Part shown: piece by piece, positions 8,524 through 54,477 of the stretch
Layout of the letters: the number at the start of each line of letters is the position of its first letter
Numbering within the stretch: the stretch's first letter is position 1
Source: a phage
Length of the DNA: 64,000 nt
Direction: 5' to 3' (one strand)
Sequence record: PV467749.1
Notes under the pieces: model-generated
Told to the model about the DNA's origin: nothing
The model's database searches: none
What the model saw: the letters and a program-made list of their open reading frames with translations, nothing else
Position numbers and translations under genes: made by a program

Positions 8524-8791
8524 TTTTCATCACATAATATGTGTCTTCACCACCACCAAGATCTTCAGTGATAGGAGTGTTTAGTGATGAACGACCGAAT
8601 ACAACCATATCACCAACACAAATATTATGTTCTGCAATTTGCCCATTAGGTAGTACTTTACCTTCACCAACTGAAATCACCATACCAACACATGGTGGTT
8701 CCACGTTTCCTAGGATAATACCACCAGTACTTTTATTCTGTGCTTCAATTTGACGAACCAGTACATAATCGTTAATCATTTTAATTTTCAT
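8489..8791 (-). CDS. groES: GroES/Cpn10-like co-chaperonin (T4 gp31 analog)
   Basis: MKIKMINDYVLVRQIEAQNKSTGGIIL...VGMVISVGEGKVLPNGQ...VGDMVVF matches the GroES pattern; ATG 8791 with GGAGG RBS; start overlaps the stop of the upstream zinc-ribbon ORF (ATGA). Confidence 0.8.
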   Translation of the reverse strand: MKIKMINDYVLVRQIEAQNKSTGGIILGNVEPPCVGMVISVGEGKVLPNGQIAEHNICVGDMVVFGRSSLNTPITEDLGGGEDTYYVMKIEEIFGKKSNG

Positions 8792-9057: not shown

Positions 9058-9065
9058 TATTTATA
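9058..9065 (-). promoter_or_regulatory. T4-type late promoter motif TATAAATA (minus strand)
   Basis: Exact TATAAATA about 60 nt upstream of the zinc-ribbon/GroES-like operon. Confidence 0.4.
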
Positions 9066-31206: not shown

Positions 31207-32238
31207 TTATAGTGATCTGTAAATTTGGATTAGAAGATTTTTATCGAACATAGGTGAATCAATTTCCATGATTTGTTGTAACACAATCTCATCAACTGAC
31301 TCAGTACTTTCAAAGCTTTCACCATCTTCAATAAGTTCTTTGATACTTTGCTTGCTAGTAACAACGTTAAACTCACGAATGTTATAAAGTTTAGTAAAAG
31401 TATCACGAATAAAACTAATCTCATCAGTAGTGATAGCAATATCAACTTGAACCTTTGAAATAGTATTGTCTTGAAGATAATAACTTGGATCTGTTAATAG
31501 TTCTGAAAGTGTAAATGTTCTATATTTTGGTGCTTCTGACCAAGAATGGAAAGTTGGTTCTTTACCATGTTCTAAAATCATCACACCTCTTGCATCATCC
31601 CATGTATCAGAAAAGTTATGTGGGAAACAGTTACCTGTGTAAATTACACGAGTTCCTTTGGATGTTGTTTTTGCTTGTCTCTTGTGGAAATGCCCACTAA
31701 AAACATACTCACAACCACCAAAAGAACCTTCAGTCTCTTTACCATGATCTGGCATCTCAACCATTTTATTGAGCAAGTAGCCAGGTAACTCTAAGTGACC
31801 AAAAACATACTTACTTTTAAGTTGAGGTAGAACTTTGTATTCATCTTCAATCATAAATGGAATGAAAGTACAATCATCAAATGTTGTGATTTCATTAATG
31901 AACTCGATGTTCTCATAAACTTGTGCCATATTAATACTAGTAATGTCACGTTTATTTTTATGATACATGTCATGGTTCCCAACTAAGAAGTAAACCTTAT
32001 CAAAGTTGTCATTTAGTAATTGTAGAATTTGTAAACCATAGTTTAATGTTTGAATGTTAATATTACTGCGGTTATGGAAGTAATCTCCCATAAACACGCA
32101 TACAGTAATACCATTTTTCTTAGCAAGTTCAATCATAAACTTGATGAAGTTCAAACAATCTTCGTTGTGCTGCTTGCTGTTATTCTTTAATCCTAAATGA
32201 ATATCAGTAAATGTAATTGCTTTATCAAATAGAGCCAT
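31207..32238 (-). CDS. gp47: recombination nuclease, SbcD/Mre11-like (T4 gp47-like)
   Basis: Metallophosphatase motifs DIHLG, GDYFH, GNHD; ATG 32238 with AAAGGAAAAA RBS; overlaps stop of gp55-like gene; track ORF uses an upstream TTG. Confidence 0.85.
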   Translation of the reverse strand: MALFDKAITFTDIHLGLKNNSKQHNEDCLNFIKFMIELAKKNGITVCVFMGDYFHNRSNINIQTLNYGLQILQLLNDNFDKVYFLVGNHDMYHKNKRDITSINMAQVYENIEFINEITTFDDCTFIPFMIEDEYKVLPQLKSKYVFGHLELPGYLLNKMVEMPDHGKETEGSFGGCEYVFSGHFHKRQAKTTSKGTRVIYTGNCFPHNFSDTWDDARGVMILEHGKEPTFHSWSEAPKYRTFTLSELLTDPSYYLQDNTISKVQVDIAITTDEISFIRDTFTKLYNIREFNVVTSKQSIKELIEDGESFESTESVDEIVLQQIMEIDSPMFDKNLLIQIYRSL

Positions 32239-33064
32239 CTTCGTTTTTCCTTTCAATCATGTTCATTTCAATTTCGATTTGACGAGTGTGTGATGGTGTA
32301 AAACCATGCATCTCAAGTAAATCGTCTCGGATGTTACGAACATTTTTCTCACTATTAAGAATCGAACGGAAACTATTGTTAACGAACGAAGTATAGTAAG
32401 AGAAAGGATTCAACTGTACTGCTGGTTTATCTTTTTTGTAAAGAATACTCTCTTTAAAGAGAAGTGCGTTTTTAACTAATTGTATTCTGGCATCACCCAT
32501 CATTTCATCCAAATATGTATAGTTTCTATAGTTGGATTTGTGTGAGATTTCCTCTGCCAGTTTAATGAACATTTTACCTAGTTCATTAGTGATTTTACCA
32601 TGAACAGTGCTGAATTCTCCGTCTTCAAGATCACCTTTCCAGTGAGAACGAACGACTTCGTACAGAATACCTTCTTCATCTACAATGTAATGTTTGAATG
32701 GTTCAAAATTAACTCTTGTATCTGCTGGGATATGTTCATCGGTAATTACACGAATAACCACCTCATCGATAGGTACATCAGTCAGTACTAAATTGTGCTC
32801 ATCTGCGTATTCCTTCGCTTTCTTCGCACTCATACCTTCTTTTTCACGAATTGCATCAAGCATTTCATTGTTGAGACGTTTAATACGTGCTGCTTTAGCT
32901 TTATCTAAAAGTTCTGCTGTGATTTCGGATTCATCAAAAACGATATAATCGTACATACTGTAGCACTTATCAAGTAACCAGCAATATGAGATTTTACTTT
33001 TTTGTATCTCACGAAGTAAATCAGCATTGTTAAGATACTTTTTACGCTTCGGCCTATTTGTCAT
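32225..33064 (-). CDS. gp55: late-transcription sigma factor, gp55-like, with large internal insertion
   Basis: N-terminus MTNRPKRKKYLNNADLLREI and C-terminal NPFSYYTSFVNNSFRSILNSEKNVRN parallel T4 gp55 ([38 protein letters not shown]); about 110 extra residues between; ATG at 33064. Confidence 0.6.
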   Translation of the reverse strand: MTNRPKRKKYLNNADLLREIQKSKISYCWLLDKCYSMYDYIVFDESEITAELLDKAKAARIKRLNNEMLDAIREKEGMSAKKAKEYADEHNLVLTDVPIDEVVIRVITDEHIPADTRVNFEPFKHYIVDEEGILYEVVRSHWKGDLEDGEFSTVHGKITNELGKMFIKLAEEISHKSNYRNYTYLDEMMGDARIQLVKNALLFKESILYKKDKPAVQLNPFSYYTSFVNNSFRSILNSEKNVRNIRDDLLEMHGFTPSHTRQIEIEMNMIERKNEDGSI

Positions 33065-33152
33065 TATTTCAACTCTCCATGTTTTAAATCCAATAGGTAC
33101 ATTCCTTGTACCATCAATGTTATTATAGCACCAAAAACGTCTTTGTCCCACG

Positions 33153-33160
33153 TATAAATA
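33153..33160 (+). promoter_or_regulatory. T4-type late promoter TATAAATA for baseplate gene cluster
   Basis: Exact TATAAATA 36 nt upstream of ATG 33196 in the divergent region between gp55-like and baseplate genes. Confidence 0.55.
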
Positions 33161-33195
33161 CATCAAATGTTCCCTTCTTATGGAGAATCAAAAAG

Positions 33196-36521: not shown

Positions 36522-39185
36522 ATGGCAGATACAAGTAAGAAATATGCCCAACAACAGTTGGGTCGTTTTGACCCTTCGTATCCACAACTAGCAACCGTGA
36601 TGGATAACCGTGACCCAACTAAATCCGGTAAGCTAAAAGTGTGGATTCAAGGTTCACAAAGTGATAAAAATTCAAAAGAGTCATGGATTGAAGCATCATA
36701 CATGTCTCCATTCGCTGGTAAAACTCCAGGGATACCAAGTGCTGATGCTTATGGTCAATATCCAAAGGGATATGGTTTTTGGGCGGTTCCACCTGATGTC
36801 GGATGTACTGTTGTTGTTATATTTGCACAAGCAAGAACATTCCAAGCGTATTGGATTGGTTGTGTTTATGACCAACGTATGAATACGATGGTTCCTGGGA
36901 TGGCTACTGAAATAAGCAATTATGCAGGTACTGATATGCCATTACCCGTAACTGATTATGACCGTAATACAATTTCTACCAGTACTCAAGACAAATATGC
37001 AAACGTTCCAATTATTGCAGGTCTGAAAAAACAAAACTTACTTTATGATGAGGAAGCGGGTGTTGCTAACCGTAGTAGTACTCGCCAGACCACCAGTACT
37101 GTTTATGGTCTTTCCTCACCTCGTGGTAACAGTTTTATTATTGATGATGGTTACACAGAAGAAGAATTAACAGCACCTACATGGGATCAAGATCCAGATG
37201 GTTATCAGGATACCCAATTCAATAACCCAGTGAACGATACTCGTGTTGGTTCTCGTAAAAATGAAGGCGTTGTAATTAAAACACGTAGTGGTGCACAGTT
37301 GTTGTTATCTGAAGCCTCTGGTGATGTTCTTTTAATTAACCGTGATGGTACTGCACGTATTAAATTCACTGGTGAAGGTGATATTGAAATGCACTGTGAT
37401 AAGAATATTAACATTCGTGCAGGTCAAGATATTAACATGGTTGCTGGACGCTCATATAATATTGAAAGTGGAGCAGACTTCAATGCTCGTGTTGGTGCAA
37501 ACACTAAACTAGATTTGGTTGGTGCATTGGATGCTAAAGTTGGTGGTCAGGTTGTTATTAACGCTGGAGCAGATTTACGTTTAGTAACAGCAGCTTCATT
37601 ACGTATGCAAAGTGGTAGCAGTACTGATATAACTGCTGGTTCTAATGCGTCAATCTCTGCTGCTACCAGTGCTAATCTTATTGGTTCTTCATCAGCTATT
37701 ATTAGTGGTGGTGGTCAAACCCTTACTGTTAACAGTGGTGGTAATAGTGGTACTGCTGAATTTAATGCACCAAACTTCCGCACCCCATCTGCTGGCTTGA
37801 ATGATCATATACATGATATATCGGCTTGGGTTGATGCAGAGAATCACGGCAGTACTGTTGAACCTCCACGTCAAGGTGGTGGTAGTGGGAATAGTGAATC
37901 CCCAGTTCAACCTGAACCTGCTAATGATGTAGCTCCAACTTTAGCTCCAGTACAGGACACTGAAGCAATTCAATATGTAAATTATACAACAGAAACAGAA
38001 CAAGTTCAAACACAAGATTTAATGACTTCTGATCCTAGTATGACTGGTTATAGCATTACTTATGAAGGTCTTCATATGTTCATGCCGTGTAGTGGAACCA
38101 TTCGCCAATACGGTTATTGGGGGAAAGGTGTCCCGACTAGTGGTGGTGGTAAAGCTGATAGAAGTGGCTGGGAAATACAGTGCAAGGGTGATGTTGTAGC
38201 TCCAGATGGCGGTGTAGTTGTTATCACTAATGGTGCTTTATTGGTTCAACATAAGTCTGGATATAAATCTGTATTTTATAATATTCAATCAGATTTGCTC
38301 AATAAAGACGTTGTTCAAAAAGGTCAAGTTATCGGTAAAGCTAATGGTGTTATTCAATTTGAAATAAGAGTCACCTCTGCCAACGTACTAGGATTTAGTG
38401 GTTCTGTTGACCCTGGATTATTCTATGCATCCCAGACTGGTACAGGTTCTGAAGCGGGAAATAAAACATTAATTGCAGGACAAGCAACGAACCAAGCAGC
38501 ACCGAAAGCTGTTGTTCAACCTTCTGTTGATAGTGATGAATTAGTTGTAACAACTAAAATTAAAACTATCGGTACTGGGTATTCTCAACGTGGTTCTCGT
38601 CATGTCCCTCGTCGTAGAAGAACACAACGTTCAGGTGGTACTCCAGCACCTACTGCACAAGAATCATACAATGTGGGTAATGTTGATAAGACTGCAATTG
38701 ATTGGAAAGTTGTTCCGGGTGATTCACAATTTATTTCTGAATTGAAAGAATATGAAGGAACAATGGCGTATCAACAAGCTAAAGGATATTACCGCAATGG
38801 TAAATTTTGGAGATATTTGGATAGTCGTGGATTCCCAACTATTGGTTACGGTCACTTGATTGTTGGTGGTGAAAACTTCTCTGGTGGGATTACCGAACAG
38901 GAAGCCAATGATATGTTGGTGCGTGATAGTAGTAAGGCTATATATGACGCAAAATCCATTTACGCTTCTTATAAGATGAAAACACCTTACATGGCACAAC
39001 AAGTTCTATGTCAAATGGTATTCCAGATGGGTAAAGGTGGTGTAATGAAATTTAAGTCAATGCTATCTGAAATGGCTAAAGGTAACTACAAGCAAGCTGC
39101 TGCTCAAATTCGAAATTCAGCTTGGTATCGTCAAACTACACGCCGTGCTGAATTAATGGCACGTAGATTAGAGGCATGTCAATAA
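36522..39185 (+). CDS. gp5: baseplate central spike, gp5-like, with C-terminal T4-lysozyme (GH24) domain
   Basis: N-terminal gp5/VgrG OB-fold pattern (GKLKVWIQG...GYGFWAVPPDVGCTVVVIF...YWIG); central Gly/Ser/Ala-rich repeats; block GQVIGKANGVIQFEIRV resembling a LytM/M23 fold without His ligands; C-terminal EYEGTMAYQ...PTIGYGH...VFQMGKGG...SAWYRQTTRRAE matching T4 lysozyme. Confidence 0.75.
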   Translation: MADTSKKYAQQQLGRFDPSYPQLATVMDNRDPTKSGKLKVWIQGSQSDKNSKESWIEASYMSPFAGKTPGIPSADAYGQYPKGYGFWAVPPDVGCTVVVIFAQARTFQAYWIGCVYDQRMNTMVPGMATEISNYAGTDMPLPVTDYDRNTISTSTQDKYANVPIIAGLKKQNLLYDEEAGVANRSSTRQTTSTVYGLSSPRGNSFIIDDGYTEEELTAPTWDQDPDGYQDTQFNNPVNDTRVGSRKNEGVVIKTRSGAQLLLSEASGDVLLINRDGTARIKFTGEGDIEMHCDKNINIRAGQDINMVAGRSYNIESGADFNARVGANTKLDLVGALDAKVGGQVVINAGADLRLVTAASLRMQSGSSTDITAGSNASISAATSANLIGSSSAIISGGGQTLTVNSGGNSGTAEFNAPNFRTPSAGLNDHIHDISAWVDAENHGSTVEPPRQGGGSGNSESPVQPEPANDVAPTLAPVQDTEAIQYVNYTTETEQVQTQDLMTSDPSMTGYSITYEGLHMFMPCSGTIRQYGYWGKGVPTSGGGKADRSGWEIQCKGDVVAPDGGVVVITNGALLVQHKSGYKSVFYNIQSDLLNKDVVQKGQVIGKANGVIQFEIRVTSANVLGFSGSVDPGLFYASQTGTGSEAGNKTLIAGQATNQAAPKAVVQPSVDSDELVVTTKIKTIGTGYSQRGSRHVPRRRRTQRSGGTPAPTAQESYNVGNVDKTAIDWKVVPGDSQFISELKEYEGTMAYQQAKGYYRNGKFWRYLDSRGFPTIGYGHLIVGGENFSGGITEQEANDMLVRDSSKAIYDAKSIYASYKMKTPYMAQQVLCQMVFQMGKGGVMKFKSMLSEMAKGNYKQAAAQIRNSAWYRQTTRRAELMARRLEACQ

Positions 39186-39197
39186 ATATTTCAGTAC

Positions 39198-39205
39198 TAT
39201 AAATA
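39198..39205 (+). promoter_or_regulatory. T4-type late promoter TATAAATA for endolysin gene
   Basis: TTTCAGTACTATAAATAATAAT about 18 nt upstream of ATG 39223; same extended motif as upstream of the capsid gene. Confidence 0.6.
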
Positions 39206-39222
39206 ATAATGAGGAAATCTTT

Positions 39223-39711
39223 ATGAGTAAATGGGAAATCAAAAATACCGACGAACAATTTTTTAAAGAAATTAAAGAATTTGAAGGTACTATTGCGTAT
39301 CAGAAAAAACTTGGTTATTTTAAAAATGATAAGTTTTGGGTATATAAAGACAGTCTAGGTCTTGATACCATTGGTTACGGTCACCTTGTACTTAAGGGTG
39401 AAAGTTTCAAAAATGGACTCACTGAAGCAGAAGCTGATGCTCTCCTTATAAAAGATGCTCAGACCGCTTACAATGACGCAAAATCAATCTATGATCAATT
39501 TGGAATGACTGCTCCAGTACAGGTTCAGCGTGTATTGTGGTTTATGGTGTTCCAAATGGGTAAATCAAAAGTTTTAAATTTCAAAAAAGCGATGGCTGCT
39601 CTCGGTCGTGGTGATTATAAAACTGCTGGTAAAGAAATGCGTGATAGTTCGTGGTACAAACAAACCACATCCAGAGCGGAGAAGATGGCTCGCATCGTCG
39701 AATCCGTATAA
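39223..39711 (+). CDS. e: endolysin, T4 lysozyme-like (GH24)
   Basis: EFEGTIAYQ...YKDSLGLDTIGYGH (catalytic Glu/Asp/Thr equivalents), FMVFQMGKS, SSWYKQTTSRAEK; GAGGAAA RBS; close paralog of the C-terminal domain of the adjacent spike protein. Confidence 0.9.
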   Translation: MSKWEIKNTDEQFFKEIKEFEGTIAYQKKLGYFKNDKFWVYKDSLGLDTIGYGHLVLKGESFKNGLTEAEADALLIKDAQTAYNDAKSIYDQFGMTAPVQVQRVLWFMVFQMGKSKVLNFKKAMAALGRGDYKTAGKEMRDSSWYKQTTSRAEKMARIVESV

Positions 39712-39726
39712 TAAAGGAAACACATA

Positions 39727-40122
39727 ATGGCAATTGTTTTTAAAGGTTTTTCAACTCCAGTAGTTGGAAGAACTGAAACATTGTATGACAGTGAATTGGT
39801 TCGTCAGGATTTAATGAATCATTTCAATACAAAAAAAGGTGAACGTGCATTTGATGCTGATTATGGGTTCATTGCGTGGGATTTGCTATTTGAATTGGAT
39901 GGTTATAATACAATCAACCTTTTGGAAGCAGATGCCCGTAGAATTATTAGCTTGGACCCACGTTTAAGCTTAAAGAAACTTCAAATATCAAGAATTGAGT
40001 ACGGTTATCAGATGGATATAGTACTTGAATATGTTGTTCTCAATACTCTTGAAGAATTAACTATAGTTTTTGATGCAAGAAGTAACAACAGAATGGCTAC
40101 CTATTCTGTATCATCTTTGTAA
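39727..40122 (+). CDS. gp25: baseplate wedge protein, gp25-like
   Basis: 131 aa; block RIISLDPRLSLKKLQISRIEYGYQMDIVLEY typical of the gp25/GPW family; AAAGGAAA RBS; upstream of gp6-like gene. Confidence 0.7.
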   Translation: MAIVFKGFSTPVVGRTETLYDSELVRQDLMNHFNTKKGERAFDADYGFIAWDLLFELDGYNTINLLEADARRIISLDPRLSLKKLQISRIEYGYQMDIVLEYVVLNTLEELTIVFDARSNNRMATYSVSSL

Positions 40123-40127
40123 ATTAT

Positions 40128-40157
40128 AAAAGCACTCTTCGGGGTGCTTTTCTTTTT
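40128..40157 (+). terminator. rho-independent terminator with UUCG tetraloop (AGCACTC-TTCG-GGGTGCT, T-run)
   Basis: 7-bp stem (one G-U), UUCG loop, followed by TTTTCTTTTT after the gp25-like gene. Confidence 0.75.
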
Positions 40158-40194: not shown

Positions 40195-40959
40195 ATGAAA
40201 TATGCAACAACCAGATCAACAAAATACAAATTTGTAACCAACGCCATTAGAGTGCATGGTATGCGTTATGATTATAGTATGGTTAAATATCATAATGCTA
40301 AAACAAAGGTGTGGATCGGATGTGAGAAGCATGGGTTTTTCCTACAAACACCAAATGACCATACATGTGGCAAAGGATGCATGGAATGCTCGGTTGAGTA
40401 TAATGCGAATCGTCAGAAAAGTCCACAGAACTTTATAAATTTTCTTAATAAGGCTAATTTAAAGTTTAGAAATAAATTTGATTATAGCACAGTAGAATAT
40501 GTTAATAATAAAACTCACATATCCATAATATGCCCAACACATGGGTCTTTTTTACAAAGACCTGATAATCATTTGTCAAGTAAGTATGGTTGTGAGAAAT
40601 GTATGATTGAATCAACGCAATCAAAAGCAGTAACTGATATTGAAAAAATGATATCTTTCACTAATTATGTTAAAGAAAAGCGTTTTGATGATTGTAGAAA
40701 CATATTAACTTTGCCATTTGATTTTTATATTGAAGATTTAAACTTGTGTATTGAATATGATGGTGAACAACACTTTCGATGTTCTGAACATTGGGGTGGT
40801 GACAAATCGCTAAAACAAACTCAACACAATGATAAAATTAAAAACACGTACTGTGCTGACCATGATATTAACTTACTTCGTATCAAATACGATGAAGATC
40901 ATATCATCGTACTAAAAAAGTACTTTTATGATAATTTTAACATAATATTAAAGGATTAA
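40195..40959 (+). CDS. homing-endonuclease-like protein: two Cys/His zinc-ribbon modules + C-terminal PD-(D/E)XK-like domain
   Basis: Modules RYDYSMVKY...IGCEKHGFFLQTPNDHTCGKGCMEC and KFDYSTVEY...IICPTHGSFLQRPDNHLSSKYGCEKC; C-terminus LPFDFYIEDLNLCIEYDGEQH...KIKNTY resembles DUF559/Vsr-like PD-(D/E)XK nucleases; inserted between gp25- and gp6-like genes. Confidence 0.6.
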   Translation: MKYATTRSTKYKFVTNAIRVHGMRYDYSMVKYHNAKTKVWIGCEKHGFFLQTPNDHTCGKGCMECSVEYNANRQKSPQNFINFLNKANLKFRNKFDYSTVEYVNNKTHISIICPTHGSFLQRPDNHLSSKYGCEKCMIESTQSKAVTDIEKMISFTNYVKEKRFDDCRNILTLPFDFYIEDLNLCIEYDGEQHFRCSEHWGGDKSLKQTQHNDKIKNTYCADHDINLLRIKYDEDHIIVLKKYFYDNFNIILKD

Positions 40960-44469: not shown

Positions 44470-44505
44470 AATCAAATGAATGAACGAATTATATGGAGTC
44501 CAAAA

Positions 44506-47500
44506 ATGACTAATAATTTTAAGTTTCAACCTACACAGATGGCTGAAGCAGTACAGAAGAAGCTTTTCATAAAAAGATTGCCTGAGTGGATGCAAGGCTT
44601 AGAAGATATTCAGAAAGTCAGTGATGATGTTATCCAACAATGGTTTAATCCGGCTGAAAACGAATTAGTTGACGGCTACATTGGTGACATGGGTTCTCCG
44701 GCAGCAGCAGGGAACATCTTCTTACACGAGTCAACAGTCGCACGTCAACTATATCAGTTGTCCACTGCGTATGTCTCAAGAAATGATGACTCCAGCATTC
44801 GTTCAATTCAATTTTATGATGATCTAGTTGGCTATATGAATCATTACGGGGCACTAACCGAAAATGAAAGCCGTTTGTTTAATGGTAAGTTCTATTCATG
44901 GACCCCACCAATTAACCCTAACAAAATGAACAACTACAGTTCATATCTATGGGATTCCAAGAATAGCTATAATATCGCAACTCCAGATTATATTGTAATG
45001 GAACGTGGTGCAGAAAATGGAAACACTTGGTCACTACAAAACTTCTGGTACACATTAGGTGAAACTTTAGAAGATGGTACAATCCTAACTGAAGAACTAA
45101 TGCAAGATTCCCGTTTTGTTCGTGCTCGTGCTCCAATTATCGAATACAATAAAAATATCGAACTAATGAACTACGGTACTAAATTCCGTGGGACAGTTGA
45201 TTTGTTCTCTGATATTATTAAACCTGAAGATATCGTACAAAAAGATATTAACAGCGGTATACGTATTGATGGTATTATTCCACAAGATGGTATGCGTATT
45301 CTTTTCACCAGTATTGGTAACAATGGTGAAAACAACCGAATTTATAAAGTATATGTTAAACGTATGCAAGATGGAACACGTGTGTATGGTCTAGCATTAG
45401 ACCCAGACGAAGAATCTGAAAGCCGTCCGAGTGGTGAACCACAAGATGGTGACGTAGTTCTTATTATCAAAGGTAATGAATTTGGTAACAGTTCCATGTA
45501 TTGGGACGGTTCTCATTGGATTCAAGCACAGTCTAAAACTTCTGTGAACGTATTTCCACAATTCCAATTGTATGACCGTAATGGTGTTAAACTAAACAAC
45601 ACTACTACCTATCCATCAAGTACTTTTACTGGTTCTTCATTATTTGGTTTTAAAATTAACTATAATTATGCAACCGATAGCGTTTATGGTTATAACATTG
45701 AACTGGGTGATTACAATTATTACACCTATGAGAATTTCCTACAATCAACTCGTTATACCTACGAGCATTTGGGTGTGGAAGTTGAAATTGATGGACTATA
45801 TTACTATAACGTAATTGGTGAAGGTAATACAATGAACCTAGAAACTGATTGGGTTCGTAGTACTGAATACTCCAAACAATATGTTAAACAAACTCCACAG
45901 GTTGAACGTACAGTAATGTTCCGCGTGTTCAGTACTGTTTATGACATGGAAAGTTTCAAAGATCCAGTTGAAGGAATGTATGCTTATGTAATTGAAGTTG
46001 ACAGAACTTATCAATATTACAAAGCAGAACGTGAAACATATCTTGATTGGCATGTTATCGTTGGTGATGGGGTACAAAGCGTTAAGTACAATCATACATT
46101 TGAATTGGCACAAAAAGTACTAGATAATTCTGATGATATTATCGAACTAGTTGTTGATGGTGTGGAAATAAAAGAATACACCAAAACTGTAGTTAATAAT
46201 CAAGTACAAAGTATTACAATTGATAGCTCTGTTGATTTGGATGAAGATTCTGTTGTACAAATAAGAACTTATAGTAGCACTATCACTCCTAATAAAGAGT
46301 TGGGTGCATATGAAGTTCCAATTAACCTACAAAATAACCCATATAATTCAAACATTGAATACATCAATCAAGGTGATTACACCCTGCACTTCCAAGATAT
46401 TATTCAAAAGAATATTACATCTGGTTCTGCTGATGACTTTAACAATTACGAAGAACGTTTGGCTGCTGGTTTGGTTAATAATGGTGTAGGCACTAAAATT
46501 ATTCAAAACGAAGCGTCCATGTTACCACTAATGGCACATACCGCTAATGAAGATATTGATTTGTTTGAATCAATCATGTTTATGCAAGCAGAATACTTCC
46601 GCTTCATTAACAAGTTCAACACTCAAATGCTTCGTTTGTATGAAGAAGACCCAAGTGCTTTTCTTGGTAATAGTGCATCAAACATCGTAGATGCGATTCT
46701 AACAGCTATTAATATGGGACGTGATAGTTCATTCCCATTCTACTATGACAACGTTGCAAGCACTGCTGGGTTTATTCGTGCATTTGTCCCACCAACTCCA
46801 CAGTTCTTGGGTATTTTGCAAGCTTATACACCACAAAAAGCAACATTCTTAACTGCTGGTAGTAAATCTAGCTGTTATAATATCAGTCATACTGGTGTTA
46901 TTTCAAAAGCATACCGTGTTATCAATGGTGTTGATAAAATGGATGACGTAGTTTTTGAATTGGAAAATCGTATCTTTAATAGTATTGACCTTACTTTCAA
47001 GGATATTGATTATAAACCAGTACTAAACAGTGAAGACCTATTCCCAACTCCATATTTCACTGGTACTGATTATAGTGCAGAAGAAAAGAAAACTCTATTA
47101 CTACGTGGTTACATTAACTTCACAGCAACCAATGGTATTAGTAACAGTACTCATGATTATGATGCAAATAACTGGAGAACTTGGAACTATACTGGTAGTT
47201 ATTATGTTGTTGATGGTCAACGTACTGAAATTCCTGCTCGTGGTTCATGGCGTGCAATCTATACTGACCAATATGGCACATATCGTCCAGCAACCCATCC
47301 GTGGGAAATGATGGGCTTCTCTCAACGTCCTACTTGGTGGAACCAAGAATACGAACCAACCGCAGTTCAAGTTGGTGAACGTGAGGGTGATGTTGTTTAT
47401 GTGTATGAAGCACTAGTAATGAATGAAAATGGTGATTTGGTCCCAAGTGGATTGTGGGATATTGATGGTACTATCGGTGACAGCAGCACTGGTACTATTT

Positions 47501-50500
47501 TGTCCGGTGAACGCCGTGGTCAATATGACAAATACAAGCGTTTCGGTGTACAGCCATTTAAAATCACTAAGACTGGCGAGAAAACCAGTACTGGTATTGA
47601 TATTTGTGAAGTTGAGTATATTGCACCTGAAGTTTTAGGTCTTGTTAGTGGTAATTTAGATCATCGTGCAGAACCGTGGGCTTATGGTGACATGGGTGAC
47701 ATGGAATTCACTTACATGAACACTGCGATGTTTGCTTATGACCAAATGCTTCTTCTATACAAAGCAAAACCAGCACAGTTTGCAAACTATTACTGGGATA
47801 CCCGTAATGATAACCTTAAACCAGTTTATACTGATGGTTCACAGTTCCTTTATGGTGAAACCCGTAAGCGTCTAAACTTTGACAGTGCTACATTAGTACA
47901 TGGTGAGAAAAATACCCGTACTATCGGTTATCAAATGTTTGTTAGTGACTATTTGATGTATCAGAATAAGAACATTACCACCAAATACGGTGACGTTGTT
48001 CGTTCTTCTTATGTCAATGTCGCTCACAAAATTGGTGGCTTTACTAAAGCAGACCAATTGACATTCACTGCTAAATCTTTCGGTTTGATTTCACAAGAAA
48101 ACCAAACTATCGGTCTAGTTCGTTCCAATAACATTCGCGATGAGCAAATGAGTGCAGTAAAAATTACTTGGAATGGTAGTGCATATCAAATTGATGGTTA
48201 TGATTTAGTTGGTGCTAAATTTAAATATAAAATTCCAGTTAAAAATGGAAGAAAAGTAACTCTTAAATTGGAAGACAGAACTGTTGTTCATTACAATGAA
48301 TGGAAATCTGAAGGTACATTAGAATATGGTAAAATATTCAATACATACCAAGAAGTTTATACTTTCATTTGTGGATATGGTGAATATCTAAAAGAACATG
48401 GCTGGATTTTTGAAGATGTAAATGATAGTGGTGCTCAACAAGACTGGACAACTATTGCTAAAGACTTTGTTATTTGGAGTCAGAATAATTTAAGTACTGG
48501 TGAGTTCATCTCCTGTACTCCAAGTGCAGCTAATGCTAAATTTGGTGCAGATTTTGGTTCAGTTCAATCTGTTACACAGAACAGTGGTGGTGTTTGGTCA
48601 CTACTCGATGATGAAAACCAAGGTATCCGTCAATATGAAATCGAAACTTCGCGTATCGGTAACGTATTCACAGTGAGAACTACATCTGAATCACAAAAAC
48701 GTATGGCGTTGATTCGTTTGAGCCTAAGTTCATATGAACACGCAGTTGTTTTTGATGATAAAACTATCTTTGGTGATTACATTTACCAACCAACTTATGG
48801 TGCTATTCAAGAATTGATTAAAATGTATGGTTACATTACTGGGGCATGGACTGGTCGCCTACAAGCACCTGGTTTCATTATCCTAGAAGCAGGAACTTTA
48901 CCATCATTTGAAAAATTAGTAACTGATTTTGAATTATATTATAATAGTGAAACTCCTGTGAGTGATGTTCAGCTTCAAGAGTTATCAAATCACTTGATTG
49001 GCTATCAAACTCGTGATTATCTACAACGTATGATTAGTAGTGATGTTAGTCGTGTTGATTTCTATAAAGGATTCATTCATGACAAAGGTACTAACCAAGT
49101 AATGGAAAAAGTACTACGCGTTTCTAAATCTTACGACACTGATGAATATAAAGCACTACAGGAATGGGCATTTAAGATTGGCACTTATGGTAATATCAAT
49201 GGTAAGAAAAATCTACAATTTAAACTAATCAATGACCAATTTAAACAACAACCACAGATGGTTTCGTTTGATGTTAATGCTACATCAAATGGTACTGGTA
49301 ATGGTATTGTTTATTACGGTGAACAAGGGGTTGACTCACGCTGGATTACTCGTCCAAATGGTAAGTTTTCATTCCCAATGCGTAGTGGAAGAAGTGAGAA
49401 TATCCAACTTCCAGACATTGGCCCAGTAACACTAGATGAAATTTCATACGTTACTAAAGATTTCAGTACTGCATATAATGATCGTATCAATTATATGAAT
49501 AACAGTGGTGAAATACCAGATTCTGTATGGATGTTTAAAGATGGTAATGATTTGTGGAATATTTTCGAACTAGTAGACACTGAAGTTGAGATGCTCTCTA
49601 TCGTTCCAATTGAAAATACCGATGTATATGCAGAACAATTCTGTAAAGTAACTCTAAGTGATGATATCCCACTAAATGATGGTGATTATTATTACTTTGT
49701 TGATGAAACTAACTTTATGCCAGATACATTGACTATAGAAAGTCAATATTATACTGCGGGTAATGACCCTAGAGTTATGGTAGTTCCGTTTGACACTTCA
49801 ATAACTATTGACTTCACTGATCCTGATACTCGCCCACGCTTGTATCGTTATGTTTCACGATTCAGTACTGAAGAGATGCGTCAGGAATACATTGACAGAA
49901 AATATAGTTTTAAAGCTCCACAAAGTACTTTGTTTGACCGCCCAACCACATATGATGAGCGTACTAACATTACTGCGTTGTACCTAAACGTGTTTGACCC
50001 AATCAACGGTGTTATTCCTGGTGCAGCGATGCAGAACGTTACCTACACATCTCCAGTTGACCCAGCACAATACAACAGCAATGGTGAATTGATTCAAGCA
50101 TGGGGTGCTGATAAAGTTGGTCAGGTTTGGTGGAACACCAGCACTGCTTTCTACTTAGATTACACTCGTGCAATCTATGATGCTGATGGTAATGTGGATG
50201 TTGATGCAACAAATGAATATAAACGTTATAACTGGGGCAGATTGCTACCGCACAGTACTGTTGATGTTCTTGAATGGGTATGTTCGCCAGTGGAACCATA
50301 TAACTGGGACAAATACTGTAAAGACGTTGCTAACAAAAATAAAAACAATACTATGTACCTACCAAGCGGAACCGCATTGGAAGATAATTATAGTACGTTC
50401 TTAGAATATGATAGCACAACTGATACTTATGTTACAAAATACTATTTCTGGGTTCGTGATACAATCTATGTACCACCATTGCATTCCAGAACTAAATCTT

Positions 50501-53500
50501 GTACTGATATTGCTCGTATTATTAAAGAACCAGCACAGCTTAACATTCCTTGGTTTGCACCAATCAATGAAAGCTCGTTCATTCTAAGTAATATGCAATT
50601 TGAAGTCAACGATGACACAAGTATTTTAACTGTTTCTTATTACATGGATAATACTGAAGTTATTAAACATGACCAGTATCAATTATGTAAAGAAGGTGAT
50701 AGCTATAACTTCAATCCATCAATCTGGACTTCTATGTGGAATTCTATGATTGGTCAAGAAACTACTGAATCAGGAACTGTTATTGATTTACTATATCCTT
50801 TAGTACCAAACGGTTTAGGTTCTAATAAGACTTGGTTCCAAGATGTAATTGAAGCTCGTAGAAACTTTGTAGAAAGTGCAAATAACTATTATCGCTCACA
50901 GAATATAACAACTAACACTGTTCTAATGGACGAAGTGTTTAATGTTAAAACTACTGAAGTTAACCCGAATGAAGTATCATATCGTGTACTAACTTACAAT
51001 AGTGAATTAGTCATTGCACCTGAAAGTGACAAGTTCAAAGAAAACGACGCAGTACTAGTAAGTACTAGTGGTGTATTACCTAACCCACTATCAACTAGCT
51101 CTGTATATTTTGTGCATATTGATGCTAATGGTTATATTCATCTAATGAATAGTCCATCAAGTGCTGGTAGTGTGGTTACCATTACATTGGAAAACCGTGG
51201 TGAAGGTCAACAGAAAATGATTAAACAATCAGACTATGTTGAAGCACTAGGAACTTCATTGGACATGACCCAGTACTGGTCACTAGCAGATTGGTATGAT
51301 ATTGGTTACGATAAAAATACTGCATATACACAAGAATCCAGCCTAGAAGATGCAAACACTAAGAACTATCAAGTTGGTGACATTATCAGAATTACAGATG
51401 TTGATGGCATCTGGACATTGTACATTAAAGCACAATCACGTGATTCAGTTTACTGGAAAGCAATTGGTCGTGAAAATAGTACAGTTGAATTGAATGATAT
51501 GTTATACGCTGACTATACAGTTCGTGATGCTAATGGTTCGTTGAGTAATCGTGAGATTAACGTTCGTAAAGCACTAGCTTTATTGAAGAACTCATTCGAC
51601 TTACATCAGAGTGAAATTGTGTTTGATATGGTTAAGTATGTTCACGTAGAACAAAGCGTTGTTGATTGGGTATTCAAAACATCTTACATTTATATTGTAG
51701 GTTTAGAACAATCATTAGTACAGAACTATTCCAACGACAACTTGATTAATCAAATCGTTGAGTACTTTGAAGAAGTTAAACCATATAGAACTAAGATTCG
51801 TTCCCAGATTGAACAGAAAACATCAGATGATGATTTAATTAAAGGTTTGTGTAATGATTTAGATCCTAATGGCTATATATTTGCAGATGGGACTTGGGTT
51901 AAAACGGAAAAAGACATTTGGGATTATGAATATGCTCAATTCAATGAGGTAACTCAACGTTGGGAGCAAGTTGGTGAATTGCCAAGTGATTTCGTAACAC
52001 CTAATCGCCGTTTCCAAGAAATTGATGTTATCATGCACTACGACAACACTCAATGTAAACCAAATGATAATTTGGCAAGTGTTGATGTATTGGAAGAAGT
52101 GAATAAGAAATATCAATCTAATGCACAAGATGTTGTTAGTAATTTTGAATTACAACGTTACAAATATACATTCCCAGAATACAGTGATGAAGATTTCGAC
52201 CTATTGGTTGCTTATCAGATGCAATTGTATTACCCAGAATTGAACGTAACTCTAGGGATTGCTTACGGTGTTAACCAATGGTATGCAGACCATGCAGATG
52301 ATTTGGTAGCAACCGCAGAATTCACAGAAACGTTGAATCGTGTATATAAAGAATCAACACAAAATGAAATGTTTAATGACGTAAATCATTACGTTCAGTA
52401 TAACACACTCTCTAACCGTTTGAAATTGTACACAGGTGCAGATGATGAAGTAATTCATGATGAAGTTGGATGTGGATTTAGTGGGTTAACCTATGATGAT
52501 AATCCAAGCACCAGACTACCGTTTGGTTATGCATCCAGTACTGATTATAACTTTGGTTACTTTGAAGTTAGTAGTGAGTTGTATAAAAAGTATGTTTCTT
52601 TAATTAAAGAAAACAATACTACTGCAACTGATGATGAAGTTAGAATTATACTTGAAGTTGAATATGGTGTTTATTCATATCGCCATGTAGATGAAGATGG
52701 AAATCAACGATTCTACAATGACGCAATTCATGTATTGTCCGGTATGCGTGGTTTGTATGACAAAGATGCTACCGACCATTATGAAAAGGCTGAAGAAATA
52801 CTAAGTAGAATGCCTATTGATATTCATGCATTTACTATGATGCCACGAAAATATGTTTATGTTAATGTTAATGGTGTATACGAGAGTATCCCAGATGACC
52901 AAAGCATTGATGATTTCATGGAAGACAAATTCATAACTGACGGTCAACTAGTTCAATTGGCAGAAATAAATCTTGATGACTTACCTCTTGATAGAAATAA
53001 CCCAATGTACAGTGATTATCAGCACATCCTAGATAGCATCACCGATGCTAAGTACTACGATGATATGAATGCATTTGATAACCTAGCACTTGAATCACAA
53101 ACTTCCGAGTTAAAATGGGAAGTTGAAGGTGACGAAGTAGATCCGTACATAATCGACATTTCTGATATTAACCCATCAGGAAGAAAGATTGGTCAGATTC
53201 GCTTCACAGTTGATGGTTATGGATTCAATAGTGTTTCACTAGTTCAATTGAGAGACAATAGTAGATATAAAACTGAAGGTATGGTTATTATCAACCCTTA
53301 TAAAACAACAGAAGCAATTGTTAGTATTCCTTCTTACGCTAAGATTGAAAATGATATTAGTAAATCATACAGTAAGTATGATGAAAAATACTTCTATAAA
53401 ATTAAATCAATTGTTAGTGATACAGAAGCTGAAGTAATTGACAATACCCTATCTGATGGTGATAAGGTTATGATATTCACAACTGATGGTGAAGATTATG

Positions 53501-54477
53501 TGAGATACCAAAACAATGCATGGGAAACCATCTTGAGTGTATCAAAAATCAAAACTGACACCACACCAACCTTGTACACAGTAAGAAACACTGCGAACGG
53601 AACTGTAGAACTACTAGATAGTACTGGAGTTGTACTTCGTTATGATAACATCACTAAACAACAACAAAATGAACCAGCAATACCTCTAGCATTGAACATC
53701 GTTCGTATTAGAACCTTTGCTGATCCAGAATTCTTGGTTGATGGTGTTAAGTTGTATGAAACAAATAGAAACTATGCTATCGACGCAATGAACTATGAAG
53801 TATTCTACGACACAACACTATACGGTGGTTCTTATAATGATGGAATTACACCAGATGACGTTGATGTTTGGGTAGTGTCTAACGAGATATTTGAAGTTGA
53901 TGGTGTTACCATTGATAACGGATATAACTTACCAATTACTGGTGCAGGTGTTCTTAGTGAGTTAGTGAGAACCAAAATGACTGATAGTGTGGAAATTAAC
54001 GTGTTCGAGTATGATGTTGGTATTATTCAACCAGTACTGAATACTGAAGGGGTATGGGAATATGCATATCCACTAGTTAGTGATACATATATTGGTGTAG
54101 TTGGTGGAACAGTAACTAACATTACTGCTATCAGTGAAGAAAATGCTACTTATGTTTCACAACCAGATTCAGTTAGTCCATATAGTGTTACTAATAATGT
54201 TCTATCTGGTGCTGGTGCAAGTATGAATGATATTATTTCTCTTGGTTTTGAAAAAGTTGAAGTACGATTTGCAAATAACTTACTCCGTGGGGTAATGTAT
54301 AGTGCAGAACACGACTTTAAAGAGAATGTGACATATTCATTTAATGGCTTGAACTTAGGTAAAGTTAATTTACTAAAACGTTATAGTGTTAACAGTTATC
54401 CAATCGAACTATCTGTTTACTCCGATAGTTTGCAAATAAGTGGTAATGACATTAAAAATCTATTAGAAGTTAAATAA
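44506..54477 (+). CDS. giant virion structural protein (about 3323 aa), putative baseplate/fibre component
   Basis: Uninterrupted 10-kb ORF; ATG 44506 with GGAG RBS (alternative in-frame ATG at 44476); Asn/Tyr/Asp/Thr-rich; follows gp25- and gp6-like genes; ends at a strong terminator. Confidence 0.6.
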   Translation: MTNNFKFQPTQMAEAVQKKLFIKRLPEWMQGLEDIQKVSDDVIQQWFNPAENELVDGYIGDMGSPAAAGNIFLHESTVARQLYQLSTAYVSRNDDSSIRSIQFYDDLVGYMNHYGALTENESRLFNGKFYSWTPPINPNKMNNYSSYLWDSKNSYNIATPDYIVMERGAENGNTWSLQNFWYTLGETLEDGTILTEELMQDSRFVRARAPIIEYNKNIELMNYGTKFRGTVDLFSDIIKPEDIVQKDINSGIRIDGIIPQDGMRILFTSIGNNGENNRIYKVYVKRMQDGTRVYGLALDPDEESESRPSGEPQDGDVVLIIKGNEFGNSSMYWDGSHWIQAQSKTSVNVFPQFQLYDRNGVKLNNTTTYPSSTFTGSSLFGFKINYNYATDSVYGYNIELGDYNYYTYENFLQSTRYTYEHLGVEVEIDGLYYYNVIGEGNTMNLETDWVRSTEYSKQYVKQTPQVERTVMFRVFSTVYDMESFKDPVEGMYAYVIEVDRTYQYYKAERETYLDWHVIVGDGVQSVKYNHTFELAQKVLDNSDDIIELVVDGVEIKEYTKTVVNNQVQSITIDSSVDLDEDSVVQIRTYSSTITPNKELGAYEVPINLQNNPYNSNIEYINQGDYTLHFQDIIQKNITSGSADDFNNYEERLAAGLVNNGVGTKIIQNEASMLPLMAHTANEDIDLFESIMFMQAEYFRFINKFNTQMLRLYEEDPSAFLGNSASNIVDAILTAINMGRDSSFPFYYDNVASTAGFIRAFVPPTPQFLGILQAYTPQKATFLTAGSKSSCYNISHTGVISKAYRVINGVDKMDDVVFELENRIFNSIDLTFKDIDYKPVLNSEDLFPTPYFTGTDYSAEEKKTLLLRGYINFTATNGISNSTHDYDANNWRTWNYTGSYYVVDGQRTEIPARGSWRAIYTDQYGTYRPATHPWEMMGFSQRPTWWNQEYEPTAVQVGEREGDVVYVYEALVMNENGDLVPSGLWDIDGTIGDSSTGTILSGERRGQYDKYKRFGVQPFKITKTGEKTSTGIDICEVEYIAPEVLGLVSGNLDHRAEPWAYGDMGDMEFTYMNTAMFAYDQMLLLYKAKPAQFANYYWDTRNDNLKPVYTDGSQFLYGETRKRLNFDSATLVHGEKNTRTIGYQMFVSDYLMYQNKNITTKYGDVVRSSYVNVAHKIGGFTKADQLTFTAKSFGLISQENQTIGLVRSNNIRDEQMSAVKITWNGSAYQIDGYDLVGAKFKYKIPVKNGRKVTLKLEDRTVVHYNEWKSEGTLEYGKIFNTYQEVYTFICGYGEYLKEHGWIFEDVNDSGAQQDWTTIAKDFVIWSQNNLSTGEFISCTPSAANAKFGADFGSVQSVTQNSGGVWSLLDDENQGIRQYEIETSRIGNVFTVRTTSESQKRMALIRLSLSSYEHAVVFDDKTIFGDYIYQPTYGAIQELIKMYGYITGAWTGRLQAPGFIILEAGTLPSFEKLVTDFELYYNSETPVSDVQLQELSNHLIGYQTRDYLQRMISSDVSRVDFYKGFIHDKGTNQVMEKVLRVSKSYDTDEYKALQEWAFKIGTYGNINGKKNLQFKLINDQFKQQPQMVSFDVNATSNGTGNGIVYYGEQGVDSRWITRPNGKFSFPMRSGRSENIQLPDIGPVTLDEISYVTKDFSTAYNDRINYMNNSGEIPDSVWMFKDGNDLWNIFELVDTEVEMLSIVPIENTDVYAEQFCKVTLSDDIPLNDGDYYYFVDETNFMPDTLTIESQYYTAGNDPRVMVVPFDTSITIDFTDPDTRPRLYRYVSRFSTEEMRQEYIDRKYSFKAPQSTLFDRPTTYDERTNITALYLNVFDPINGVIPGAAMQNVTYTSPVDPAQYNSNGELIQAWGADKVGQVWWNTSTAFYLDYTRAIYDADGNVDVDATNEYKRYNWGRLLPHSTVDVLEWVCSPVEPYNWDKYCKDVANKNKNNTMYLPSGTALEDNYSTFLEYDSTTDTYVTKYYFWVRDTIYVPPLHSRTKSCTDIARIIKEPAQLNIPWFAPINESSFILSNMQFEVNDDTSILTVSYYMDNTEVIKHDQYQLCKEGDSYNFNPSIWTSMWNSMIGQETTESGTVIDLLYPLVPNGLGSNKTWFQDVIEARRNFVESANNYYRSQNITTNTVLMDEVFNVKTTEVNPNEVSYRVLTYNSELVIAPESDKFKENDAVLVSTSGVLPNPLSTSSVYFVHIDANGYIHLMNSPSSAGSVVTITLENRGEGQQKMIKQSDYVEALGTSLDMTQYWSLADWYDIGYDKNTAYTQESSLEDANTKNYQVGDIIRITDVDGIWTLYIKAQSRDSVYWKAIGRENSTVELNDMLYADYTVRDANGSLSNREINVRKALALLKNSFDLHQSEIVFDMVKYVHVEQSVVDWVFKTSYIYIVGLEQSLVQNYSNDNLINQIVEYFEEVKPYRTKIRSQIEQKTSDDDLIKGLCNDLDPNGYIFADGTWVKTEKDIWDYEYAQFNEVTQRWEQVGELPSDFVTPNRRFQEIDVIMHYDNTQCKPNDNLASVDVLEEVNKKYQSNAQDVVSNFELQRYKYTFPEYSDEDFDLLVAYQMQLYYPELNVTLGIAYGVNQWYADHADDLVATAEFTETLNRVYKESTQNEMFNDVNHYVQYNTLSNRLKLYTGADDEVIHDEVGCGFSGLTYDDNPSTRLPFGYASSTDYNFGYFEVSSELYKKYVSLIKENNTTATDDEVRIILEVEYGVYSYRHVDEDGNQRFYNDAIHVLSGMRGLYDKDATDHYEKAEEILSRMPIDIHAFTMMPRKYVYVNVNGVYESIPDDQSIDDFMEDKFITDGQLVQLAEINLDDLPLDRNNPMYSDYQHILDSITDAKYYDDMNAFDNLALESQTSELKWEVEGDEVDPYIIDISDINPSGRKIGQIRFTVDGYGFNSVSLVQLRDNSRYKTEGMVIINPYKTTEAIVSIPSYAKIENDISKSYSKYDEKYFYKIKSIVSDTEAEVIDNTLSDGDKVMIFTTDGEDYVRYQNNAWETILSVSKIKTDTTPTLYTVRNTANGTVELLDSTGVVLRYDNITKQQQNEPAIPLALNIVRIRTFADPEFLVDGVKLYETNRNYAIDAMNYEVFYDTTLYGGSYNDGITPDDVDVWVVSNEIFEVDGVTIDNGYNLPITGAGVLSELVRTKMTDSVEINVFEYDVGIIQPVLNTEGVWEYAYPLVSDTYIGVVGGTVTNITAISEENATYVSQPDSVSPYSVTNNVLSGAGASMNDIISLGFEKVEVRFANNLLRGVMYSAEHDFKENVTYSFNGLNLGKVNLLKRYSVNSYPIELSVYSDSLQISGNDIKNLLEVK

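Follow-up and report, generated by a model that had tools for sequence, protein, structure and literature searches.

A baseplate spike with a C-terminal lysozyme domain and an adjacent lysozyme paralogue in an Asteriusvirus jumbo coliphage

Introduction

How is a lysozyme carried at the end of a phage tail spike related to the free lysozyme encoded directly after it, and what might each of the two do? The question is raised by two adjacent genes at positions 36,522 to 39,711 of a 64,000-nucleotide (nt) stretch of phage DNA (sequence record PV467749.1), here called the window. A first-pass annotation, made from the letters alone, described the first gene as a gp5-like spike with a T4-lysozyme-like domain at its extreme C-terminus and the second as a stand-alone endolysin with its own late promoter, and took the likeness of the two lysozymes as a sign of recent duplication or fusion. 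The window belongs to an Asteriusvirus jumbo coliphage, with 99.7% DNA identity to Escherichia phage vB_Ec-M-J over this region and ~84% to PBECO4, 121Q and phAPEC6 (megablast). We consider it probable (roughly 0.7 for the explanation as a whole) that the 887-aa product of the first gene forms, as a trimer, the central spike in the contractile tail of this Rak2-like jumbo myovirus, with a tethered lysozyme. The second gene encodes a paralogue of that lysozyme, and the separation of the two is old.

Much of this arrangement was already known. The RaK2 paper of 2013 described three lysozymes that are paralogues, ORF073 and the domain of ORF078 having 66% similarity, and an 886-aa baseplate lysozyme of "very unusual domain composition" in which, unlike in T4 gp5, a beta-helix is followed by a C-terminal lysozyme (PMC3622015). 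The CBB paper of 2017 reported the gp5 OB domain and, in the centre of the protein, a possible M23 domain, and set a baseplate trio apart from a predicted endolysin (PMC5259590). The gene pair, the domain order and the lysozyme paralogy are therefore published (RaK2 2013, CBB 2017) and the locus has low value as a discovery. The additions made here are incremental: support for a degenerate LytM domain of the EnvC/DipM kind, an internal H-x-H motif kept in every full-length homologue, relatives with an intact M23 domain, the old paralogy and an internal promoter motif specific to one lineage. What value remains is that of a pointer, as the likeness of the LytM domain to bacterial autolysin activators offers a concrete hypothesis for bench work.

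Results

The N-terminal half is a gp5/VgrG-type needle

The spike and lysozyme open reading frames (ORFs) were confirmed at the annotated positions and lie 37 nt apart on the plus strand. Structures were predicted with AlphaFold2 (AF2), and model confidence is given as the predicted local distance difference test (pLDDT); virion proteins of related phages were identified by mass spectrometry (MS).

36522-39185, plus strand: baseplate central spike gene, gp5/VgrG type, 887 aa, 95.6 kDa (ORF; phrog_13211; orthologues seen in virions by MS)
36588-36869, plus strand: OB-fold domain, aa 23-116, predicted to dock the spike on the hub (Pfam Phage_base_V; AF2 model)
37284-37766, plus strand: triple-beta-helix repeats, aa ~255-415 (Pfam DUF2345; phmmer; pLDDT)
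37806-37814, plus strand: H-x-H motif, His429-Ile-His431, candidate histidine cage or apex motif (conservation among homologues)

The spike matched PHROG family 13211 across all 887 profile positions. Domain analysis revealed an OB fold, a beta-helix, the H-x-H motif, a linker, a LytM/M23-fold domain that lacks metal ligands, a second linker and a C-terminal GH24 lysozyme, in that order, which bears out the earlier description of a lysozyme placed at the extreme C-terminus after the beta-helix (residues 728-887 and ~255-415, respectively) and not, as in T4 gp5, before it. The assignment as a gp5-like spike was upheld by Phage_base_V (PF04717), which matched residues 23-116 with 29.8 bits (cut-off 23.8), and by the AF2 model of residues 1-445. 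This model matched the spikes of type VI secretion systems (T6SS; VgrG), the extracellular contractile injection systems, the Photorhabdus virulence cassette and the antifeeding prophage (structural search, E about 1e-8), as well as those of phage P1, phiKZ, T4 (gp5), R2 pyocin and P2 (gpV). Orthologues of the spike have been detected by MS in virions of phAPEC6 (gp241) and CBB (CBB_240; PMC5259590).

The needle region is identified by DUF2345, the VgrG beta-helix family (residues 278-329; 30.9 bits, cut-off 30.7), and by phmmer alignment to the C-terminal beta-helix of VgrG1 (4uhv, 4mtk; E 2-3e-4) and to the spike of the Streptomyces coelicolor contractile injection system (9gtr), with pLDDT >90 at residues 260-370. 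An apparent extension of the 4uhv alignment into the HIH motif was discarded, as it matches the His-tag of that entry.

The H-x-H motif directly follows the beta-helix repeats and is kept in 85 of 85 full-length homologues recovered from the protein database. The Apex domain of P2-type spikes is defined by a histidine cage to which the three chains each contribute one C-terminal H-x-H, and whose six histidines bind iron; in P2 gpV this motif is HTH197-199. The motif studied here is mid-chain, with ~455 residues after it, and so lies away from the position near the C-terminus that is typical of a P2 gpV-type Apex. Spikes that lack the histidine-cage H-x-H carry a PAAR protein instead. A phmmer search with T4 gp5.4 against all ORFs of the window, a weak test confined to the window, found no PAAR or gp5.4-like protein (best E 0.037, to an antisense ORF), and Pfam found no PAAR among nine small window ORFs.

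A LytM/M23-fold domain without metal ligands lies between two linkers

37818-38036, plus strand: linker 1, aa 433-505, rich in Gly/Ser/Pro/Thr/Gln/Glu, predicted disordered (composition; pLDDT <50 at the start of the segment model)
38061-38483, plus strand: degenerate LytM/M23-fold domain, aa 514-654, no metal ligands (AF2 model, Foldseek)
38484-38702, plus strand: linker 2, aa 655-727, with a conserved ELVV..K...IG.GYSQRGS.H.PRR(RR) segment (conservation; low pLDDT)

The first-pass annotation had proposed profile searches for Peptidase_M23 and Phage_base_V and had described a LytM/M23-like block lacking the usual histidine ligands. Whereas Phage_base_V scored above its threshold, Peptidase_M23 (PF01551) matched residues 550-607 at 18.1 bits, under its cut-off of 28.7. 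We predicted the structure of residues 495-727 with AF2 from an alignment of 40 homologues and compared it with the PDB by Foldseek. Residues 514-654 were modelled with pLDDT >90 between disordered flanks. At E <= 1e-3 there were 56 PDB matches, and 49 of the 50 listed were LytM/M23 domains. The top matches were the inactive regulators DipM (7qrl; E about 1e-6) and EnvC (4bh5/8c0j; template-modelling score 0.71, root-mean-square deviation 3.3 A), followed by PrgK, Csd2 and SpoIIQ and then by active M23 enzymes such as lysostaphin and LytM. Because the AF2 fold and Foldseek place residues 514-654 among LytM/M23 domains, the M23 assignment was retained despite the sub-threshold Pfam score.

The loss of ligands was also borne out. 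Where the canonical sites are H-x3-D, Y-x-H and H-x-H, the spike has SGWEIQ, FYNIQ and VIQFEIR, respectively, and no full-length homologue keeps the metal ligands, a Vibrio phage spike at 38% identity among them. According to the model, then, the block is a catalytically dead LytM fold. A distant 619-aa relative (P0105), consisting of an OB fold, helix and M23 domain, retains HPGVD, YGH and HCHFE at these sites, with its catalytic histidine opposite Ile588 of the spike in a weak pairwise alignment.

The P0105 spike (metagenomic contig L016, 5001-6860) apparently carries an active M23 peptidase and has no lysozyme, and after its cluster comes a DNA ligase gene in place of a gp25-like one. A 168-aa ORF following this spike was considered as a candidate lysozyme and rejected, as it is not one.

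Linker 1 is poorly conserved. In linker 2, the segment ELVVTTKIKTIGTGYSQRGSRHVPRRRR (spike aa ~672-700, 38535-38621) is strongly conserved inside an otherwise variable, disordered stretch before the lysozyme domain, and could be a processing or docking site.

The two GH24 lysozymes are paralogues with intact catalytic residues

38703-39185, plus strand: C-terminal GH24 (T4-type) lysozyme domain of the spike, aa 728-887, with E745, D767 and T773 (PF00959; alignment with T4 lysozyme and T4 gp5)
39223-39711, plus strand: stand-alone GH24 lysozyme, 162 aa, 18.6 kDa, isoelectric point 9.2 (ORF, BLASTP, Pfam)

Phage_lysozyme (PF00959; cut-off 22.3) matched both the spike (residues 765-882; 41.6 bits) and the 162-aa protein (37.3 bits), and NCBIfam returned lysozyme matches only far below threshold. 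Alignment with T4 lysozyme (T4L) and T4 gp5 showed that the catalytic Glu/Asp/Thr triad (Glu11/Asp20/Thr26 in T4L) is kept as E745/D767/T773 in the spike and as E21/D43/T49 in the 162-aa protein. Both differ from T4L by an insert of ~13 residues between the catalytic Glu and Asp and by the absence of one T4L loop. The 162-aa protein has no hydrophobic segment and no domain beyond the enzyme, and is predicted to be soluble.

Residues 728-886 of the spike aligned with residues 4-162 of the stand-alone protein without gaps, with 80 of 159 positions identical (50%; BLASTP, E 7e-57). This confirms that the neighbouring gene is a stand-alone GH24 lysozyme paralogous to the spike C-terminus, as annotated; the paralogy is clear, although the two sequences had been called very similar and that wording overstates an identity of 50%. 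At the DNA level, the two regions gave only a patchy alignment (69.7% over 132 nt).

The spike lysozyme domains of Hallingskeid (L010) and Munch (L005) have Asp for the Thr26 equivalent (..NDIGYGH and ..QDIGYGH), together with changes in the Asp20 region and an insert of 4 residues. They are much more diverged than the stand-alone copies of the same genomes, with 48-53% identity to the copies in the window compared to 68-70%. The spike enzyme of these two phages may have relaxed or altered activity.

The duplication is old, and the evidence on its direction is divided

The order of spike, 162-aa lysozyme and gp25-like gene was found in PBECO4, JNE01, Hallingskeid, Munch, BF, CBB and GAP32, and also in RaK2 with four small ORFs in between, so that the syntenic pair spans Asteriusvirus, Alcyoneusvirus, Mimasvirus, Eneladusvirus, Munch and Hallingskeid. 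Within a genome, the two lysozyme copies were 40-62% identical in all nine genomes compared, about equal to the identity of orthologues across genera, and T4 gp5 and the T4 endolysin, at 44.8% on the same alignment, are diverged to a comparable degree. Lysozyme trees were built by neighbour-joining: one of 34 sequences with 100 bootstraps, and a smaller tree whose deep nodes were poorly supported. In the 34-sequence tree the stand-alone copies were monophyletic (99% bootstrap), and none of the 100 bootstrap trees paired a copy with its own spike. Because the pair is syntenic in many lineages, the stand-alone clade is so well supported and no copy pairs with its own spike, the sequence comparison shows that the paralogy is old.

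The claim of a recent duplication or fusion between an exit lysin and an entry lysin does not survive these results. The two genes are indeed adjacent on one strand, and within the phage collection each lysozyme has the other as its nearest relative (on the spike family phrog_13211 the 162-aa protein reaches 215 bits, and on the next family 87 bits). Yet an amino-acid identity of 50% with patchy DNA similarity, a pair held in synteny across all these groups, and cross-genus orthologues approximately as diverged as the paralogues inside one genome make a recent event very improbable. Which of the two forms came first is less clear-cut. Vibrio phage 2.275.O, P0076 and P0080 have a full fused spike directly followed by the gp25-like gene, with no stand-alone copy at that position, and the single GH24 match in the Vibrio phage genome is the spike itself; the synteny of these divergent lineages favours the fused form as the older. 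The 34-sequence tree points in the opposite direction, with the stand-alone clade outside nearly all spike C-terminal domains and not nested in the enterobacterial spikes. Together with the existence of short, enzyme-free spikes, such as that of PA5oct (477 aa), this would suit an ancestral stand-alone gene that a short spike gained at its 3' end by fusion, as opposed to a spike domain that was copied out. The deep nodes of the smaller tree are weak, however, and faster evolution after duplication can also give a basal position; set against the fused spikes of the divergent lineages, an origin from the stand-alone gene seems to us possible but somewhat doubtful.

The lysozyme gene lies in a late baseplate transcription unit

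32225-33163, minus strand: gp55-type late sigma factor gene, divergent from the baseplate operon (phrog_12791, phrog_234)
33153-33160, plus strand: TATAAATA 5' of the first baseplate gene, candidate late promoter of the operon (motif placement)
39198-39205, plus strand: TATAAATA, T4-type late-promoter consensus, 18 nt before the lysozyme ATG (exact match)
39211-39215, plus strand: GAGGA ribosome-binding site of the lysozyme gene (read from the sequence)
39727-40122, plus strand: gp25-like baseplate wedge gene, predicted to be co-transcribed 3' of the lysozyme (Pfam GPW_gp25, 34.7 bits; phrog_43)
40128-40151, plus strand: terminator-like hairpin, 10-bp stem followed by a T-rich run (CTTTTT), predicted end of the transcription unit (terminator scan)

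The lysozyme gene does have a late-promoter motif of its own, as had been proposed: an exact TATAAATA stands 18 nt before its ATG, and the phage encodes a gp55-type sigma factor (phrog_12791 "sigma factor for late transcription", E 1e-152; phrog_234, E 1.5e-16), in agreement with the annotations of orthologues. The window contains five copies of the motif, all intergenic; four of them are followed, after 18-48 nt, by a same-strand ATG. There was no window-wide enrichment (5 observed against 7.8 expected), so that placement alone is informative. The motif (T)ATAAATA occurs ~36 nt before the first baseplate gene in all nine phages compared. Upstream of the lysozyme, only Asteriusvirus and RaK2 have an exact copy; Hallingskeid and Munch differ from it at one base, and BF, CBB and GAP32 lack it. 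This distribution points to a lineage-specific internal motif. A scan for sigma-70 promoters was set aside as it stayed at background level (29 observed, 28.9 expected).

The terminator scan found no terminator-like site between the spike and lysozyme genes and none before 40128. Because of this, and of the hairpin after the gp25-like gene, the lysozyme gene is read as part of the late baseplate operon, with an extra internal late-promoter motif in this lineage. RaK2 has an insertion of four small hypothetical ORFs, two per strand, that separates the spike from the stand-alone lysozyme (L004, 6842-8335), and its lysozyme gene is preceded at 44 nt by a fresh TATAAATA.

Neighbouring genes

The gene order is late sigma factor (minus strand), a virion protein, a gp53-like protein, a 751-aa virion protein, the spike, the 162-aa lysozyme and the gp25-like protein, followed by an HNH endonuclease, a gp6-like protein (1153 aa) and a 3333-aa virion protein. 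The real start of the late sigma gene is probably near 33064. The HNH-type homing endonuclease gene (254 aa; 40195-40959, plus strand; phrog_559, E 2e-55) lies between the gp25-like and gp6-like baseplate genes, directly after the terminator-like hairpin. It is shared with JNE01 and absent from that position in PBECO4 and phAPEC6, and is for this reason a mobile-element insertion polymorphism within the baseplate operon. The 3333-aa ORF (44476-54477, plus strand) follows the gp6-like gene, and its phAPEC6 orthologue gp245 (382 kDa) is a virion protein by MS. Elsewhere in the window, a phage GroES/Cpn10 homologue is encoded at 8489-8791 on the minus strand (PF00166, E 1e-16), with a TATAAATA at 9058-9065 on the same strand, 267 nt upstream.

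Discussion

A spike that would carry its enzyme beyond the needle

The domains identified here suggest the following mechanism. The N-terminal OB fold would seat the spike on the baseplate hub, residues ~255-415 of three chains would intertwine as a beta-helix needle, and His429-x-His431 would probably clamp the chains at the needle end through a putative metal cage. From this end, the dead LytM domain and the intact T4-type lysozyme would hang on flexible linkers of ~70 residues. On sheath contraction the needle would cross the outer membrane and bring the tethered lysozyme into the periplasm, the domains arriving ahead of the tube, where the enzyme would cut glycan strands locally and let the tail tube pass. 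The dead LytM domain would most likely bind peptidoglycan or position the enzyme. We know of no structure of a phage spike with enzymes beyond the needle tip. The 162-aa gene, as an old paralogue of the spike lysozyme, would supply an active, soluble, signal-less muramidase that is made late in infection and kept out of virions; its likeliest task would be host lysis, together with a third lysozyme paralogue, membrane-anchored and with LysM, whose gene lies elsewhere in the genome.

Several points weigh against this explanation. The RaK2 proteome missed the spike altogether (PMC3622015), and MS coverage of the spike was low in both phAPEC6 and CBB (4-10%), so that these data need not mean that the C-terminal domains stay on the mature virion. 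A monomer AF2 model cannot reveal the register of the beta-helix or a metal site. The term "apex" may be the wrong analogy for an internal H-x-H, because the P2-type motif sits at the extreme C-terminus and a long C-terminal half follows it here; the motif may merely hold the chains in register. Finally, the operon around the 162-aa gene is one of baseplate genes, and neither a holin nor a spanin is encoded close by.

The C-terminal half need not stay attached. The LytM-fold and lysozyme domains could be cleaved during maturation, with the pieces remaining non-covalently or being released. T4 gp5 is a precedent: Kanamaru and co-workers are said to have found in 2002 that it is cut at Ser351/Ala352. 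Such a cut would fit the two long disordered linkers that flank the domains and the basic ELVV...GYSQRGSRHVPRRRR segment, strongly conserved, that directly precedes the lysozyme domain, but the conservation of this segment is equally explicable as a packing or docking strand. The proteins detected in RaK2 ran at their predicted sizes, although the spike was not among them (PMC3622015). We hold cleavage to be unlikely and prefer the tethered lysozyme.

The LytM domain invites a further idea. The best structural matches of this domain, EnvC and DipM, belong with NlpD to the bacterial periplasmic activators of amidases and lytic transglycosylases, and these regulators also lack the Zn ligands. 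The likeness consists of the fold and the lost ligands; sequence identity is just 18-21%, active M23 enzymes score nearly as high, and M23-fold modules are common among phage entry proteins generally. That the LytM domain at the spike tip acts as an activator of this type, on host amidases or lytic transglycosylases or on its own tethered lysozyme, with the mid-chain H-x-H as a metal-clamped "apex" that the enzymes would dangle from, is in our judgement a long shot. If true, an activator LytM would reach the periplasm ahead of the tube, and the wall would be breached partly by hijacked host autolysin control at the entry point.

The 162-aa lysozyme: lysis enzyme or baseplate factor

The label of endolysin given to the second gene is uncertain. 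The orthologue from UE-S1, LysUE1, is 90% identical to the 162-aa protein; it was purified in 2025 and lyses Escherichia coli with ethylenediaminetetraacetic acid (EDTA) present. The orthologue in phAPEC6 is not among the virion proteome entries, where the spike is, and the CBB paper states that the small lysozyme was unconfirmed as structural in any Rak2-like phage (PMC5259590). These points and the late-promoter motif speak for the label, whereas the neighbours of the gene are baseplate genes, with no adjoining lysis cassette, and a competing lysozyme exists. There are three GH24 matches in these genomes. The third paralogue, phAPEC6 gp293c (308 aa), combines an N-terminal membrane anchor with LysM and lysozyme domains; the lysozyme domain shares 35% identity and the unusual insert with the 162-aa protein. 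The CBB paper named the homologue of gp293c the predicted endolysin (PMC5259590). The annotated ORF of gp293c (L003, 18101-19027) starts with TTG, and its neighbours are ribosome hibernation factor-like and 2H-phosphoesterase-like genes, with no lysis genes. A survey of spanins lists those of PBECO4 and 121Q, without positions that would tie them to either lysozyme. Solubility, activity and absence from the proteome leave a lysis role for the 162-aa protein, possibly shared with the third paralogue, at roughly even odds.

The protein could instead be associated with the baseplate, as a low-copy virion component or an assembly-time helper. Its gene lies between the spike and gp25-like genes inside the baseplate operon, with no terminator before it, and this position is conserved in seven lineages; the separate signal-anchor-release-like LysM-lysozyme could then act as the endolysin, and MS, which easily misses low-copy baseplate proteins, missed even the spike in RaK2. 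The proteome of phAPEC6 and the statement of the CBB paper speak against it, as does the lack of any domain other than the enzyme, and P0076, P0080 and the Vibrio phage build the same baseplate cluster with no stand-alone lysozyme, which is thus not a required part. On balance a baseplate role seems improbable to us.

Comparison with known systems

The closest systems are those of the other Rak2-like phages (RaK2 ORF078/ORF073/ORF029; CBB_240/239/187; phAPEC6 gp241/242/293; LysUE1 of UE-S1), whose spikes are 57-100% identical to the window spike and equal in length, domain order and neighbourhood, with no material difference. T4 resembles the present phage in combining an OB fold, a GH24 lysozyme and a triple beta-helix in one spike, in encoding a free GH24 paralogue elsewhere (gp5 lysozyme and T4L are 44.8% identical, compared to 50% for the pair here) and in using gp55-type late transcription. 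The order differs, however, being OB fold, lysozyme and helix in T4 and OB fold, helix, H-x-H, dead LytM and lysozyme here. The T4 helix is capped by the PAAR protein gp5.4, whereas here an H-x-H is present and no PAAR was found in the window, and the lysozyme paralogues are adjacent here and far apart in T4.

The spikes of P2 (gpV), R2 pyocin and phi92 share with the window spike an OB fold and a beta-helix followed directly by H-x-H. In these spikes the motif lies ~12 residues from the C-terminus and forms the tip, while ~455 residues follow it here. A C-terminal enzymatic extension beyond an OB fold and beta-helix needle is instead found in the "evolved" VgrG proteins of the T6SS. VgrG-3 of Vibrio cholerae is an evolved VgrG with a C-terminal peptidoglycan hydrolase. 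The likeness is one of layout: the window spike is a phage virion protein and evolved VgrG a component of a secretion system, and the N-terminal, gp27-like half of VgrG is missing from the spike; a 751-aa virion protein is encoded separately upstream. Of the two layouts, that of an evolved VgrG with its C-terminal effector comes nearer to the spike than that of T4 gp5.

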